From: a virus
Taxonomy: Duplodnaviria > Caudoviricetes
Virus record (IMG/VR): IMGVR_UViG_3300031992_000016
Location: 1 to 64,000 of that record
Length of the DNA: 64,000 nucleotides
Direction: 5' to 3' (one strand)
Part shown: positions 25,374-45,159 of the stretch, piece by piece
Layout of the letters: each line of letters opens with the position of its first letter
How positions within the stretch are numbered: the stretch's first letter is position 1
Notes under the pieces: generated by a model
The model's database searches: none
What the model was told of the DNA's origin: nothing
The model's input: the letters and a program-made list of their open reading frames with translations, nothing else
Translations under genes and position numbers: made by a program

Positions 25374-26079
25374 TCCTTATAGTTGAAAATTTAAAAAAAA
25401 TTTGATATAATATATATGTAAGATGAAGGGAGGAAGTAAATGATGGATTTTGAAAATGCTAAGCAACAGCTGATGGATTGGATTGGTGCGTCACCTTTCT
25501 CTTGGAAACTTGCGGTTTTAGCTGAGATAGAGCAAATTCAAACTTGGGATGAATTGCAGCGTATGGCTCGGCAGTGGGGTGTTACTTTTCAGTGATACCA
25601 AAGGCGGGTAAATAAATTGGGGCCAATATTCCGCCACCCCTGAATATATTTAATGGCAAAGGAGGCAAAAAGTATGGAAGCTTTGCAAAAGAATAAGATT
25701 ATATTCACCTATAAGAACAACGATAATGTCTATGCGCATGATATTAATCTGGAATTTTCTATCGGAGAACCTAAGTTAAGTGAAATTCATTCGATGTGCA
25801 AGGATTTTGCACGAGTAATGGGTTTCTCGTCTGAACAGGTTGAAGAGTATTTTGGAGAGGACGTGTGGGACATTGACTAAATTGTTGCGGCTGGACCTGG
25901 ATATAAATCAGTTGATGCAGAAGTTGCAGGATGGCGATTGCTCTGAATCTGAGCTGAATTTTCTTAAGAACCTGTATCATGATTTGGACGAACTCTTTAA
26001 AGACCTCAAAAACTTGAAAAATTAAAAAATTTTTGATATAATATATATGTAAGGTTGAGAGAGAAATCAATCAATCCTG

Positions 26080-27045: not shown

Positions 27046-27122
27046 CGGAACTTAACTCAGTCGGTTAGAGTTCTGGTCTTATAAACCAGCGGTCCTGGGT
27101 TCGAGTCCCAGAGTTCCGACCA
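27046..27122 (+). tRNA. tRNA-Ile(TAT)
   Basis: Cloverleaf, loop CT-TAT-AA, CCA. Confidence 0.9.
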
Positions 27123-27148
27123 TACAAAATTCAATAGGAGATGATGTT

Positions 27149-27556
27149 GTGTATCAGAATGGTCAGCGTCTTAATAGACATGCGCGGAAGCGTCGGCACA
27201 TTGATAATTTGAAGCGTCGATCTACTCCTTATGAGTTTAGTAGCTATGAAAGTTTTGTTGAGTATGAACGTTATTGGGATGCATTCCGTGATGGTATGTT
27301 CGCGGCAATGTATGGTGATTATTATCCTCGTAGAACTCCTACTGGTCGTCCTTGGTATGAACGCTATTGGGAGGCTTATACAGGATATGTCTCTCCTGGT
27401 TGGAAAAAGAATCTGAAAACGCAGGCGCACCGCGATGAGCGGCGTTACTGGCGTGAGCACCTTGGCGATGTCATGAAAATGGAAGACATCGAAGATGAAG
27501 AAACTCCGCATGAGCGGCGTGGTCGTCGGCATAGTGACCCTTGGCACTGGGATTAA
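27149..27556 (+). CDS. Arg/Trp-rich hypothetical protein
   Basis: RBS AGGAG, GTG start. Confidence 0.7.
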   Translation: MYQNGQRLNRHARKRRHIDNLKRRSTPYEFSSYESFVEYERYWDAFRDGMFAAMYGDYYPRRTPTGRPWYERYWEAYTGYVSPGWKKNLKTQAHRDERRYWREHLGDVMKMEDIEDEETPHERRGRRHSDPWHWD

Positions 27557-28180
27557 CTTCCTTGAAAATTTACAAAAAATATTATATAATATATATGTAA
27601 GATAAAGAAAGGGGATGCGCTCAATGAAGTGGGATTGGTGTGATGAGTATAGCACTGGCGTTGATAATTATCATGGCCAGATGGATTCTTTCGTATGTGA
27701 TCTAACCGCAGAAGATATGTATGCGTATGATTATGCAATGCACGATACTTGGCAGGATGTTGAGCGTGAGTGGGCTGAGGAACTTGGCGTTGAGTTGGAA
27801 GTTTATGAAGATTAAATCCCTGACCGCGAACTTGAAAAATTAAAAAAAATTTGATATAATATATAAGTAAGGTTAAGAAAAAAAGTAAAAGAAAAAAATG
27901 CTGGAAAACCTCACAACCTTGACAAAATAAAAAAAATATGATATAATAATTAAGGAGAAGGAAAACTCCATAAACCCCACAAACTACGACAATGTGGTTA
28001 AAAAGTCGAAACTGGGTCCCGCGGCCAGGATAAAGACACGTGGGGTAGATTGGTGAGAACGTAGTGTAGGGGTTCGAATCCCCTTGCGGTGGCTCGAAGT
28101 AACAAGTTGGTCACTTGTGCTCGCCGCACGGATATAGGCGATACCGCGTTTGGCAAGATCACCGCTTGCATCACTTTTAT

Positions 28181-28256
28181 GACCTGTTCGTCTAGTGGTT
28201 TAGGACGCGGCCCTCTCAAGGCTGGGACATAGGTTCGAATCCTGTACAGGCCACCA
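28181..28256 (+). tRNA. tRNA-Glu(CTC)
   Basis: Cloverleaf, CCA. Confidence 0.9.
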
Positions 28257-28263
28257 CGTATAA

Positions 28264-28338
28264 TGCGGCGAGGGCAAACGGTAAGCCACCTGGCTCATAA
28301 CCAGAAGATAGTGGGTTCAACTCCCACCGCCGCTACCA
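28264..28338 (+). tRNA. tRNA-Met(CAT), unpaired 1:72 (initiator-like)
   Basis: Cloverleaf, T1:T72 mismatch, CCA. Confidence 0.85.
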
Positions 28339-29280
28339 GGACTGGCACTGTCCGAAATAAGTGCTGTGGGGAACGCCAGCGCACATCTGGTGAGGGTGAA
28401 AAGGTAGAAGGCATTGTCCGGGTTCGACTCCCGGCGGAGGAGGGTCGCGATGTCAGAAAACTCTGATGCACTTAGAGTCTAGCCCCGCTCAAAGGGAGGC
28501 CACCCGAGAGCGCATACTGAGCCCATAACAGATAAGAGAGTGGGCAGTAGTCACGCTACTATAAAAAGGTGTAAGTTCCGCCTATGGAAAAGTATCGTAG
28601 GAGTCGGCAAGCAGGGCCAAACTGCTACAAGCTTGGTAGTCAGGCAAGCTATTTACACTCAGCCAGAGATCTGGTGGCGTAAAGGCATCGTCGTAATTAG
28701 TATAAATGTTGCGTAGCAACCACGCAACCCGTCCGTGGGCAGAATAGATGGGGTAAATTGAGTGTAAAAACTGGATACATGACCCAGTATAAAAAGGTGT
28801 CGCGCTTATAAGCCGCAAGTTCGCAATAGCTTATACAGTTGCCCACTCTGTAAAAGGAGGCGCGCCGATAGACCGCAAGTGAAATAGTCTATTAAGGTGC
28901 CCAAATGCGGTAATTAGCGTGTAAGTTTTGAACAACTAAGACTGAGGAGCTCTGGGTCGCGCGCTATGAAGAATGGGTTAAATGGAGTTTGAGGAACAGC
29001 CAAGCGCAAACTGTATGGCTTTGTATGTGCCAGATTGCTCGGCGCTTAATAAAAGAAGAGCAAAGTAAGCTCCTAGTTGCTGATAAAGTGAGTATAGTAA
29101 GGTTCTCATACTAGGATTGACCGAATCCCGCAGGTGGGAAAGCACAACATCCCAGCCCGGTCAAGACAGGGTTAAGCCATCACGTGTGCCAGTGGATGCG
29201 GCGTACCGATAGGAAGTTCGGAGTAGGTCACTTTTGGAGATATTCAGAAATGCCGAATAGGCTATCCGGAAATTCTCCAC
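28339..29280 (+). ncRNA. Large ornate ncRNA candidate (GOLLD/ROOL-like setting)
   Basis: ~940 nt between tRNAs with no sense ORF; nested helices 28537-46/28840-49, 28652-61/28759-68, 28946-51/29068-73, 29117-23/29158-64. Confidence 0.7.
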
Positions 29281-29285
29281 TTTAT

Positions 29286-29360
29286 GCCCTGTTGGACAAT
29301 CGGTAAAGTCGGCGGCCCTTCAAGCCACAGTGCCGGGTTCAACTCCCGGACAGGGTACCA
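29286..29360 (+). tRNA. tRNA-Glu(TTC)
   Basis: Cloverleaf, CCA. Confidence 0.9.
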
Positions 29361-29408
29361 CCTTTCTTAATAGCTGGTGTTTCCTTTCGTAGTGGCACAT
29401 GCCACTAT

Positions 29409-33732: not shown

Positions 33733-34227
33733 CCAGGGCATGCCTGGTTTATATTGTCTAGCAACAAGGCAATCACACTGCAATGTTGTATGTAGGTAAA
33801 TGATGGGGAGGAGTTAAAGGCGTCCTCTCTCTGGGGCAATGCGGTAATACCTGCGCGCGGGTAGCAAAGTTACCCTACCAGTAGTTAGAAGTCTGTAAAA
33901 CTTCCATTGGGCTGGCTGAGAGGCCCTGGTCCATCTTCCTTGCCAACAGTGATAGTCCTGTTTAAGGCAAAAAACATGCGGGTTAGCTAAACGCGATGAT
34001 GGCTAGTTTTAGGGTTTTACGCCACGCTTTTAAGGACTTTGGCATTGATAAGCAAATTTGCTTGTCTATACTAGTTAATGCCGCAGTTCTAATTTGTCTG
34101 CACACTCGATTGGTAGTGTCCCACAAAAAAACTTGTTGAAGAGTGAAGTTGGTGGTTTTAGCTCTTAAAAAATATCTTATATGCGCTAAGATAAGGGCGC
34201 TTAATAGTGAAGGAGAGGAACTTAACT

Positions 34228-34659: not shown

Positions 34660-34776
34660 AAGACCTGTCAGCAATTATCTTTTTGCATTAGGAGCACGGG
34701 GTTCCAGGTTCGAATCCTGGGTCGGGGATTATTCCCCGGCTAGCTCAACTGGTAGAGCACGTTATTAGCGGGTCTT
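34660..34776 (+). ncRNA. ACAGCAA-family RNA, copy 3, with circularly permuted tRNA domain
   Basis: AAGACCTG/CGGGTCTT stem, TCAGCAA; T arm 34704-34720, loop-closed acceptor 34721-34740, D arm 34743-34758. Confidence 0.85.
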
Positions 34777-37354: not shown

Positions 37355-37447
37355 AGCCCCTTAGTTCAACGGTAGAACACCGGTCTCTAAAACCGTTATA
37401 TCCCTCTGAAGGAGGTAGTCTGGGTTCGAATCCCAGAGGGGCCGCCA
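37355..37447 (+). tRNA. Amber-decoding tRNA (anticodon CTA), probably Gln; extended variable arm
   Basis: AGCCCCT/AGGGGCC acceptor (unpaired 1:72), G73, CCA; loop CT-CTA-AA at 37385-37391. Confidence 0.9.
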
Positions 37448-37451
37448 ATCA

Positions 37452-37561
37452 TCGACACGTACAGCAAATATAAAGAGTAATCTTTATGTCATGGGTTCAA
37501 CTCCCATCCTGCACACAGTGCATGTAGCTTAGTTGGTAGAGCGAAAGAATATAAGTGTCGA
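37452..37561 (+). ncRNA. ACAGCAA-family RNA, copy 4, with circularly permuted tRNA domain
   Basis: TCGACAC/GTGTCGA stem, ACAGCAA; TCTTT/AAAGA stem, T arm 37491-37507, loop-closed acceptor 37508-37524, D arm 37527-37542. Confidence 0.85.
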
Positions 37562-37572
37562 GTAAATTTTTA

Positions 37573-41120: not shown

Positions 41121-41156
41121 ATTAAGCCCCTCATTTGAGGGGCTTAATTTTTTTTG
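41121..41156 (+). terminator. Rho-independent terminator
   Basis: ATTAAGCCCCTCA-TT-TGAGGGGCTTAAT followed by a T-run. Confidence 0.85.
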
Positions 41157-41214
41157 CCTTTTTTATTTTTTTATGTTATAATATAAATGAAAAATAAAAA
41201 GGAGGTTAATTTAT

Positions 41215-43626: not shown

Positions 43627-45159
43627 ATGAGTGAATTTCTTAACAGCTTAAAGGTTGCTACTAACATGACCCATACGACTAATGGCGCTCTTACCTATAA
43701 GTCTACGCTTAACAAGGTGTATGATTTGTTCGCTCAGGGTGCGGCTATGCGTAATGGCGATGAATCTATGTGTCGTTCTTTGTTTATGTCTGCATATCAT
43801 GAAAATCCTACGCTGGCATTAAAGTGTCTGTTCTATTTGCGTGATATTCGTGGCGGTCAAGGCGAGCGGCGCTTCTTCCGCATTGCTATTCGTTCACTGG
43901 CTCAGAAGTATCAAAAGGAAATGTCTAATCTGGTAAAGTATATTCCTGAATTTGGTCGGTGGGATGACCTATATACTCTTGTAGATACCCCTCTGGAAAA
44001 TGAAGCATTTGCTTTTATGAAGAAGCAGATTATGCTGGACTTGGACAGCAAGACCCCTTCTTTGCTTGCTAAGTGGCTGAAGTCTGAGAATACCTCTTCT
44101 CAGGAGTCTGTGCGCTTGGCAACTAAGACTCGTCTGGCTTTCGGTCTGTCTGCGCGGCGTTATCGTAAGATGCTGTCTCTGCTTCGTAATCGTATTAACA
44201 TCGTTGAAACTCTGATGTCTCAGAACCGCTGGGACGAGATTGAGTTTGATAAGCTGCCTTCTCGGGCTGGTATTATTTATAAGAATGCATTCGCACGCCA
44301 TGACATTACTAAGGCTCGTTATGAAGCATTTATTAAGGATGAGAACACTAAGGTCAATACCGGAACTCTTTATCCTTATGATGTTGTTCATGAAGTATCT
44401 AAGTTGTGGAAGGGTTGGTATAACTATAAGCTGACTAAGGACGTCAATGACGTTGAACGTTTGGCCATCAATAAGTATTGGGATAATCTGACCGATTATT
44501 TCAATGGTGCAACTCTGAACGCGCTGGCTGTTGTAGATACCTCCGGTTCTATGACTAGTGGGTCTGGAAATATTGCTCCTATTGATGTCGCTATCGCTCT
44601 CGGTATGTATTGCGCTGACCGTGCGCAGGGACCTTTCCATAATCACTTTGTTTCTTTCAGCCGCCGTCCTGAGTTGATTGAAATTGAGGGTGTGGATTTC
44701 TGCGAGAAGGTAAGCAATATCTATCGTCAGAACCTGTGTGAGAATACCAACATCGAAGCTACCTTTGATTTGCTTCTTAACACTGCAAAGCGCGCTCATC
44801 TGCGTCAGGATCAGCTTCCTCAGTCTCTGATTATCATCAGCGATATGCAGTTTGACCGGGCAACTGGCCGCTACTGTAATGATGATGAAATGGATGCATG
44901 GGCTAACACTTTGTTTGAAACTATTAATCAGCGCTGGGAAAATGCCGGATATGAGATGCCTCATCTTATCTTCTGGAACGTAAATGCTGCTTCTGGTGGC
45001 GGAAACATTCCTATGCGCGACAGTGGAAATGTTACTTACGTCAGCGGTGCTTCTCCTGTTATTCTGGAACAGGTGCTTACGGGCAAGACTGGCCAGGATG
45101 TCATGCTGGACAAGCTGATGTCTGAACGCTACGCTGTTATCAAGTCTATTACTGAGTAA
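43627..45159 (+). CDS. DUF2828-family protein (helical TROVE/Ro60-like N-terminus plus vWA domain)
   Basis: TNGA..Y.ST, FYLRDIRGGQGER, GRWDDL, LLAKWL.SE, LYPYDVV, VVDTSGSM, IISDMQFD, IFWNV, VSG.SP. Confidence 0.85.
   Translation: MSEFLNSLKVATNMTHTTNGALTYKSTLNKVYDLFAQGAAMRNGDESMCRSLFMSAYHENPTLALKCLFYLRDIRGGQGERRFFRIAIRSLAQKYQKEMSNLVKYIPEFGRWDDLYTLVDTPLENEAFAFMKKQIMLDLDSKTPSLLAKWLKSENTSSQESVRLATKTRLAFGLSARRYRKMLSLLRNRINIVETLMSQNRWDEIEFDKLPSRAGIIYKNAFARHDITKARYEAFIKDENTKVNTGTLYPYDVVHEVSKLWKGWYNYKLTKDVNDVERLAINKYWDNLTDYFNGATLNALAVVDTSGSMTSGSGNIAPIDVAIALGMYCADRAQGPFHNHFVSFSRRPELIEIEGVDFCEKVSNIYRQNLCENTNIEATFDLLLNTAKRAHLRQDQLPQSLIIISDMQFDRATGRYCNDDEMDAWANTLFETINQRWENAGYEMPHLIFWNVNAASGGGNIPMRDSGNVTYVSGASPVILEQVLTGKTGQDVMLDKLMSERYAVIKSITE

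Follow-up and report, generated by a model that had tools for sequence, protein, structure and literature searches.

The 947-nt interval at 28339-29285 (+) in the genome of a phage described as rumen-type is probably a co-transcribed string of about ten separately folding RNA modules, each of 35-130 nt, within a phage tRNA operon (rough probability, 0.7). We favour this reading because the interval is made of sharp-bordered blocks that are placed independently and covary locally, and because its long-range helices are not conserved. The first-pass annotation had described one ornate RNA of about 940 nt. Instead, the blocks proved to be conserved, shuffled and placed independently in relatives; the fallback offered there, a new RNA class of about 940 nt, likewise lacked support as one co-evolving molecule. 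The modules are small RNA families absent from Rfam 15.

Setting and coding potential

The source record is a complete viral genome of 168,960 bp with direct terminal repeats, and its first 64 kb form the window, that is, the whole stretch of 64,000 nt that was analysed. From 26.2 to 39.3 kb, ARAGORN identified 33 tRNA genes, all on the + strand. The interval coincides exactly with the gap from tRNA-Met(CAU) to tRNA-Glu(UUC), which agrees with its earlier assignment to the inside of a tRNA array. The claim that it is non-coding also stood: we found no credible ORF in 28339-29285 on either strand, whether with translation table 11 or with TAG read through as Q. The G+C content of the gap is about 0.51, as against about 0.38-0.43 in the coding flanks. 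The features that frame it are:

28264-28338 (+): tRNA-Met(CAU), which bounds the element on its 5' side; modules A/A2 or G come directly after a tRNA-Met in relatives
29286-29360 (+): tRNA-Glu(UUC), which bounds it on the 3' side; the relatives G002, G003 and G004 also have this Met..Glu(UUC) gap, at 897-1095 nt
27832-27860 and 27919-27947 (+): two strong sigma-70-type promoters, with 11/12 and 12/12 consensus matches, respectively

The promoter sequences, TTGAAA-17-TATAAT and TTGACA-17-TATAAT (both with TG), would drive a transcript comprising tRNA-Glu(CUC), tRNA-Met, the 947 nt and tRNA-Glu(UUC). No terminator-like site was found on the plus strand from the promoters to 31500. With strong promoters and no terminator before 31.5 kb, the gap should therefore be co-transcribed with the tRNAs.

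Several other features of the array were recorded. The promoters belong to a cassette of about 56 nt, TTGAAA/TTGACA-17-TGnTATAAT plus a conserved start region, that is present in four copies in the tRNA array (26011-26066, 27559-27614, 27829-27884 and 27916-27971; family D4). The leader of about 220 nt at 27960-28180, which separates the 27919 promoter from tRNA-Glu(CUC), likewise lacks an ORF; it carries a second orphan T-arm, GGGGTTCGAATCCCC, at about 28069-28083, and its part 28053-28153 has a 75% match to another place in G002. In the Rfam alignment, position 1:72 of tRNA-Met(CAU) (28264-28338) is unpaired. A tRNA at 37355-37447 with anticodon CUA and a long extra arm, labelled 'Pyl' by ARAGORN, suggests TAG readthrough in this phage; 'Pyl'-type CUA tRNAs also occur in the related contigs L037, L141 and L143.

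Modules and their structure

BLAST of the region against 50,697 GenBank phage records returned no match, and the upstream 445-aa protein, used as a query for related loci, returned no relatives. Related IMG/VR and metagenome contigs were retrieved with motif patterns, and chance matches were filtered out; for the pattern of module G, about half of the metagenome matches were due to chance and were removed. In about 50 related phage and metagenome loci, similarity to the interval is confined to blocks of 35-130 nt with sharp borders. The exception is metagenome contig L089, which matches the full 947 nt at 100% identity; every other locus matches block-wise only. Blocks with independent homologues account for about 90% of the length, and H and K are private to this phage. 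The modules are:

28339-28373 (+): A, small hairpins behind tRNA-Met, the first being GGAC..GUCC at 28339-28353; conserved in 8 loci
28374-28517 (+): A2, found as 16 sequence variants behind different tRNAs; no Rfam match
28518-28599 (+): B2, hairpins GCCCAU..GUGGGC and AGUAGU..GCUACU with the first TATAAAAAGGTGT copy; only in L008, L010, L083 and L058
28600-28650 (+): Bp, two hairpins, the second at 28630-28650 with conserved loop GGUAGUCAGG; 16 loci, 13 variants
28652-28768 (+): C, multibranch RNA of 117 nt closed by an 11-bp stem, UUUACACUCAG/UUGAGUGUAAA; fold z -2.6
28769-28893 (+): D, a small hairpin and a tandem pair of hairpins; contains the CCGCAAGT repeats as well as the second copy of TATAAAAAGGTGT; 20 loci
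28894-28968 (+): E, conserved GGUGCCCAAAUGC leader and a three-way junction at 28915-28966; 8 variants
28969-29003 (+): F, GAAUGGGUUAAAUGGAGUUUGAGGAACAGCCAA, usually just 5' of G; 34 loci
29004-29069 (+): G, 66-nt pseudoknot and the most widely shared block; 46 loci, at least 27 variants
29070-29116 (+): H, hairpin UCCUAGU..ACUAGGA; private, with a match only in the identical contig L089
29117-29231 (+): J, stem-closed tRNA-like four-way junction; 8 variants
29232-29285 (+): K, 45-nt hairpin at 29235-29279 before tRNA-Glu(UUC); private, with a homologue only in L089; fold z -2.9

The first hairpin of A covaries (GGAC/GUCC, GGGU/ACCC and GGGC/GCCC). A2 consists, in order, of a hairpin at 28374-28392, AGGGUGAAAAGGUAGAAGG, a stem GGCAUUG/CGAUGUC enclosing the T-arm at 28418-28434, the 22-nt motif CUGAUGCACUUAGAGUCUAGCC at 28463-28484, and CGCUC..GAGCG. 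This motif was invariant in all 16 homologues found, seven of which had been found independently of it, the later A2 set having been fetched with the motif as an exact anchor. The T-arm mimic described at first pass, CCGGG-TTCGACT-CCCGG, is indeed present at 28418-28434 and conserved, and its stem pairs change in a compensatory manner among the homologues (CG, UA and AU). The T-arm insert is wholly missing in L131, which makes the T-arm an optional domain of A2. It differs by one loop base from the T-arm of tRNA-Glu(UUC) (CCGGGTTCGACTCCCGG at 28418-28434 and CCGGGTTCAACTCCCGG at 29333-29349), and it could be a copied tRNA piece or a coincidence. In L136, a 'tRNA-Pro(CGG)' called by ARAGORN overlaps A2 in its 5' part; in L078, L135 and L137, the program called tRNA-like genes of no assignable identity 35 nt beyond the A2 motif. 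A2 may be derived from, or fused to, degenerate tRNAs.

At the position of B2, L078 has a tRNA-like gene. The second hairpin of Bp showed double changes in 4 of its 6 pairs, with 98.8% of cells paired, and its covariation score was reached by none of 500 shuffles. The closing stem of C carries four compensatory double changes relative to L025 and L058, with an interior that is 95% identical, and an inner hairpin carries one more; this comparison involves only two variants. The tandem hairpins of D share a conserved loop, C-GCAA-G-U..AAU, that corresponds to the CCGCAAGT repeats. D is a single unit in some relatives and has an extra copy in L037. Its covarying stems, judged by direct reading of the D copies, are UAUAAGC/GCUUAUA, GAUAGAC/GUCUAUC and AUAGGC/GCCUAU. 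The repeated submotifs noticed at first pass are where they had been reported (TATAAAAAGGTGT at 28560 and 28788, CCGCAAGT at 28813 and 28873), and the many local hairpins were borne out as well. Within D, 28852-28860 is a perfect Shine-Dalgarno-like sequence, AAAGGAGG, which is not followed by a start codon at a distance of 5-10 nt; comparable linkers, A-rich and with GG, lie at block borders (28561-28572, 28789-28800 and 28399-28411).

For E, 97.9% of cells were paired and three pairs had double changes, and 5 of 500 shuffles reached its score. F is separable from G: inserts of 73-95 nt lie between them in L002 and L023, and F is absent in L022 and L025. A link of F to the ACAGCAA motifs found elsewhere in this genome was considered, but F has ACAGCCA, one of many such heptamers on both strands. 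G, which is present as a single copy in the searched window, has three helices: P1 (GCGC/GCGC), a P2 hairpin (UGGC..GCCA) and P3 (UUGCUC/GAGCAA). The 3' strand of P1 lies inside the P3 loop, so that G forms a compact pseudoknot. P1 changes from GC to AU, P3 has two compensated pairs (GC to AU and CG to AU), and the fourth pair of P2 occurs as CG, UA, GC and UG, and also as AU by direct reading. Overall, 96.8% of cells were paired, and no shuffle in 500 reached the covariation score. A covariance model built from 27 variants recovered four more copies without the exact retrieval anchors. The extended G pattern was not found in 185,579 species genomes, in which the plain pattern gave only chance matches, in G+C-rich genomes. 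The P2 loop of G (29018-29034 and homologues) is often self-complementary (GCAUGU, GUAUAC, ACAUGU, GUAUGU), and we speculate that it would allow loop-loop dimerisation.

J is built of a closing stem (UGACC/GGUCA), an inner stem (CCGCA/UGCGG), three hairpins and then a hairpin CCGA..UCGG. Ten of its 26 consensus pairs are compensated, including the closing stem (CG/AU/UA), and the later J set was fetched with conserved motifs as exact anchors. The spacing of the inner junction is tRNA-like, with 2, 1, 4-5 and 0 nt between arms, and the third hairpin is a genuine T-arm in relatives and degenerate in this phage. Across modules, the covariation tests drew on few and related sequences, with few or no homologues for B2, H and K, and several alignments used exact anchor motifs, whose invariance is thus partly by construction. 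Where covarying pairs have G-U alternatives, these are consistent with an RNA that has the sequence of the + strand.

The whole-region fold scored z -1.9 against shuffles on the + strand and -1.2 on the - strand, and most module folds had z between -1.1 and +0.2. Because most fold energies were no better than those of shuffles, the evidence for structure is comparative, not energetic. We therefore weighed a non-functional spacer, made of decayed tRNA genes and recombination scars, that folds merely through its high G+C content. These fold energies would suit such a spacer, as would the T-arm remnants in A2 and J, the tRNA-like genes that ARAGORN placed inside or beside A2 in L136, L078, L135 and L137, and mosaic borders typical of phage recombination. 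By contrast, compensatory double substitutions occur in many helices, loop and junction motifs of 22-30 nt are invariant across otherwise diverged copies (for A2, in copies first found by other routes), and the same modules persist in dozens of contigs behind different tRNAs. On balance, we consider a mere spacer very unlikely. The earlier proposal of a structured RNA stands in so far as the interval is folded non-coding RNA with local covariation among the gathered homologues; it fails in treating the interval as one unit.

Block order and long-range pairing

In relatives, the order of the blocks differs, some blocks are duplicated and some occupy different inter-tRNA gaps; all keep the orientation of the tRNAs. 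The syntenic Met..Glu(UUC) gap of 897-1095 nt in G002, G003, G004 and L007 contains G, and the other blocks differ. G is directly behind tRNA-Met in L021, L022, L034 and L053, with F located 400 nt downstream of G in L021 and L034. L002 has two G copies in a shuffled order, L037 has an F fragment elsewhere in addition to its extra D unit, and L133 has A2 joined directly to D. Depending on the contig, A2 follows tRNA-Met, Ile, Leu, Ala or Val; J directly precedes tRNA-Gly(GCC) in seven contigs and tRNA-Glu(UUC) in L104. CGTCACAYAGTGTAG, the motif of a module of about 115 nt in L021, L023 and L025, is absent from the window.

These arrangements bear on a second alternative, in which the blocks are domains of a single molecule of about 950 nt, a new class of large ornate RNA released between tRNA-Met and tRNA-Glu, with F/G as a conserved core and an interchangeable periphery, like the halves of GOLLD. 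It is consistent with the recurrence of the Met..Glu(UUC) gap in the four syntenic relatives, always with G, and with the similar gap length and the absence of an interrupting tRNA here and in several relatives. Near-palindromic P2 loops of G could support multimerisation of such a molecule. A position downstream of tRNA-Met is shared by GOLLD env-38, and GOLLD has a variable part and a linker that can hold tRNAs (PMC12286853). However, two relatives split the modules between inter-tRNA gaps: in L025, D1 and G precede tRNA-Met, and C comes only after the four genes for tRNA-Met, Asn, Ala and Asp; in L058, C is upstream of tRNA-Met, and A2, D1 and F+G are downstream. Other relatives have the modules permuted or duplicated, most of the 3' 215 nt is private, and the whole-region z is only -1.9.

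Long-range pairing was compared directly. The MFE fold of the 947 nt contained three sets of long-range contacts. A closure of the 5' and 3' ends (28343-28418 with 29165-29230) gave a duplex z of -2.8 and beat 99 of 100 shuffles in this genome, which favours the single molecule, but pairing of the equivalent ends of the syntenic G002, G003 and G004 was not above chance, and the 3' strand of the closure is required by the covarying local fold of J, with which the closure would compete. For a 9-bp helix between 28537-28545 and 28841-28849, no relative carries both halves, and both halves have local partners; neither this helix nor the closure is kept in any relative. Formation of an 8-bp helix between 28510-28517 and 29023-29030 would disrupt the P2 hairpin of G, which covaries. 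Of the long-range 10-bp helices proposed at first pass, one survives as the covarying 11-bp closing stem of the local 117-nt module at 28652-28768, and the other is present only in this genome. Judged from sequence, the long-range helices have no comparative support and clash with conserved local folds, a single co-evolving architecture of about 950 nt appears excluded, and a single physical RNA of about 950 nt is possible. We regard the single-molecule reading as unlikely and retain the string of separate modules.

Possible functions

For such a string of modules, host RNase P and 3'-processing at the flanking tRNAs would be expected, from established tRNA maturation, to release the 947-nt fragment. 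We conjecture that AU-rich linkers and tRNA-like elements might then guide further cutting into stem-clamped small stable RNAs. The modules would act singly as protein- or RNA-binding units, either as tRNA mimics or decoys, or as scaffolds for proteins encoded next to the array, namely Ro60-like and RNA-repair proteins, and recombination would exchange them as cassettes between phages. RNA ligase and kinase genes lie next to the array. Conserved loops and covarying stems argue for sequence-specific partners and against mere spacers. Our best guess is that tRNA processing sets the modules free and that they work as tRNA-like decoys or as RNP scaffolds.

The gene at 43627-45159 encodes a Ro60/TROVE-like DUF2828/DUF7788 protein. 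Homologues occur in 702 phage records, and the best of them are in large Bacillus phages, which, together with the promoter type, suggests a Firmicutes host. A bolder and rather doubtful proposal is that rumen phages maintain, in their tRNA operons, a library of small RNAs (A2, C, G, J and others) that are stem-clamped, in part shaped like tRNA, and subject to recombination. Freed by the tRNA-processing machinery, these would act as decoys or scaffolds, either to counter host defences that target tRNAs or to assist the Ro60-like and RNA-repair proteins of the phage itself. If true, such phages would have a combinatorial RNA toolkit, not single giant RNAs.

At least eight conserved RNA families absent from Rfam 15 are present here (A2, Bp, C, D, E, F, G and J); among them are a compact pseudoknot that recurs in dozens of contigs and a tRNA-like cloverleaf held in an outer stem. 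On the modular reading, the unit of selection here would be the 35-130-nt module, and GOLLD- or ROOL-like giants are not to be assumed in long, ORF-free, G+C-rich gaps of phage tRNA arrays. The modules are candidates for new phage small RNAs and for the study of cassette exchange of structured RNAs.

Comparison with known RNA systems

We searched 27100-29400 with cmscan against all 4227 families of Rfam 15 (E<=10) and, noise apart, obtained the flanking tRNAs alone; the corresponding blocks of eight related loci had no match to a known Rfam family either. ARAGORN found no tRNA or tmRNA within 28339-29285, and the Rfam tRNA and tmRNA models were silent there. The interval contains neither a complete cloverleaf with acceptor, D, anticodon and T arms nor a tmRNA tag domain; its tRNA-like parts are the lone T-arm of A2 and the four-way junction of J, which lacks both a D loop and a free acceptor end. 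The RF01998 (group-II-D1D4-1) model gave no match. Identities as a tmRNA, a hammerhead type II, small ORFs or copied tRNA 3' ends were each considered and rejected.

The identification as GOLLD or ROOL made at first pass, and with it the idea of a divergent member of either family, had in its favour the size, the phage tRNA-array context and the position behind tRNA-Met (PMC12286853). The covariance-model search gave no match to either. ROOL (RF03087; cut-off, 99.1 bits) had no match at E<=10 anywhere in the genome, and the named control genomes were likewise without a match. The best GOLLD score in the genome (RF02032; cut-off, 150 bits) was 9.5 bits at 41124-41207 (-), outside the region. 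Both models were also silent on the homologous modules in relatives, and the conservation pattern differs. At the level of sequence and structure models, this reading is already refuted, and we give it virtually no weight.

Like the interval, GOLLD is a large structured RNA region that lacks ORFs and lies in a phage tRNA array, and its setting, a phage or prophage site near tRNA genes, is found here too (a 33-tRNA array, behind tRNA-Met, in a 169-kb viral record). The 3' region of GOLLD is universally conserved and its 5' region less so (PMC12286853). By contrast, there is no universally conserved 3' half here: the most widely shared block is 29004-29069, within a 66-100-nt core in the middle of the region, the 3' 215 nt are private except for module J, and the blocks are independently mobile. 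ROOL shares a rumen and phage origin, proximity to tRNA islands and the lack of a known function, but has one conserved architecture of about 580 nt, and its model matches neither the region nor the genome.

The YrlA-type Y RNAs are stem-clamped RNAs of about 110 nt with a tRNA-like domain including a T-arm and occur in phage tRNA clusters; a further parallel is the Ro60/TROVE-like protein encoded at 43627-45159. The YrlA model (RF02553; cut-off, 69 bits) had no match inside 28339-29285. The cloverleaf of module J is colinear with tRNA and exits via the acceptor-like stem, whereas YrlA exits through its anticodon-like stem. Elsewhere in the array, YrlA- or Y RNA-like sub-threshold matches lie at 34696-34765 and 37466-37572 (35.7 and 32.4 bits; best E, 9e-5), and several relatives have YrlA-like matches beside tRNAs (E, 1e-7 to 1e-4). 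Cow-rumen-3 (RF03083) and cow-rumen-4 (RF02948) are likewise small structured rumen-metagenome RNAs of the same type of array with no known function, although no module of the interval matches either. Another array spacer, at 33805-33935, has a sub-threshold cow-rumen-3 match (42 bits; E, 9.5e-7), and the related phage contig L143 has a cow-rumen-4 RNA (RF02948) above the gathering score at 2152-2219 (67.7 bits).

The nearest functional analogue of, and precedent for, the proposed modules is provided by RNAC and RNAD of phage T4, non-tRNA small RNAs that are co-transcribed with the phage tRNAs and have no known role (PMC3014915). The modules share with them a non-coding position within a predicted tRNA transcription unit, a likeness of context. 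T4 has two such RNAs, whereas this phage has a chain of about ten modules in a single gap and further ones in other gaps, and the modules are shuffled between phages.
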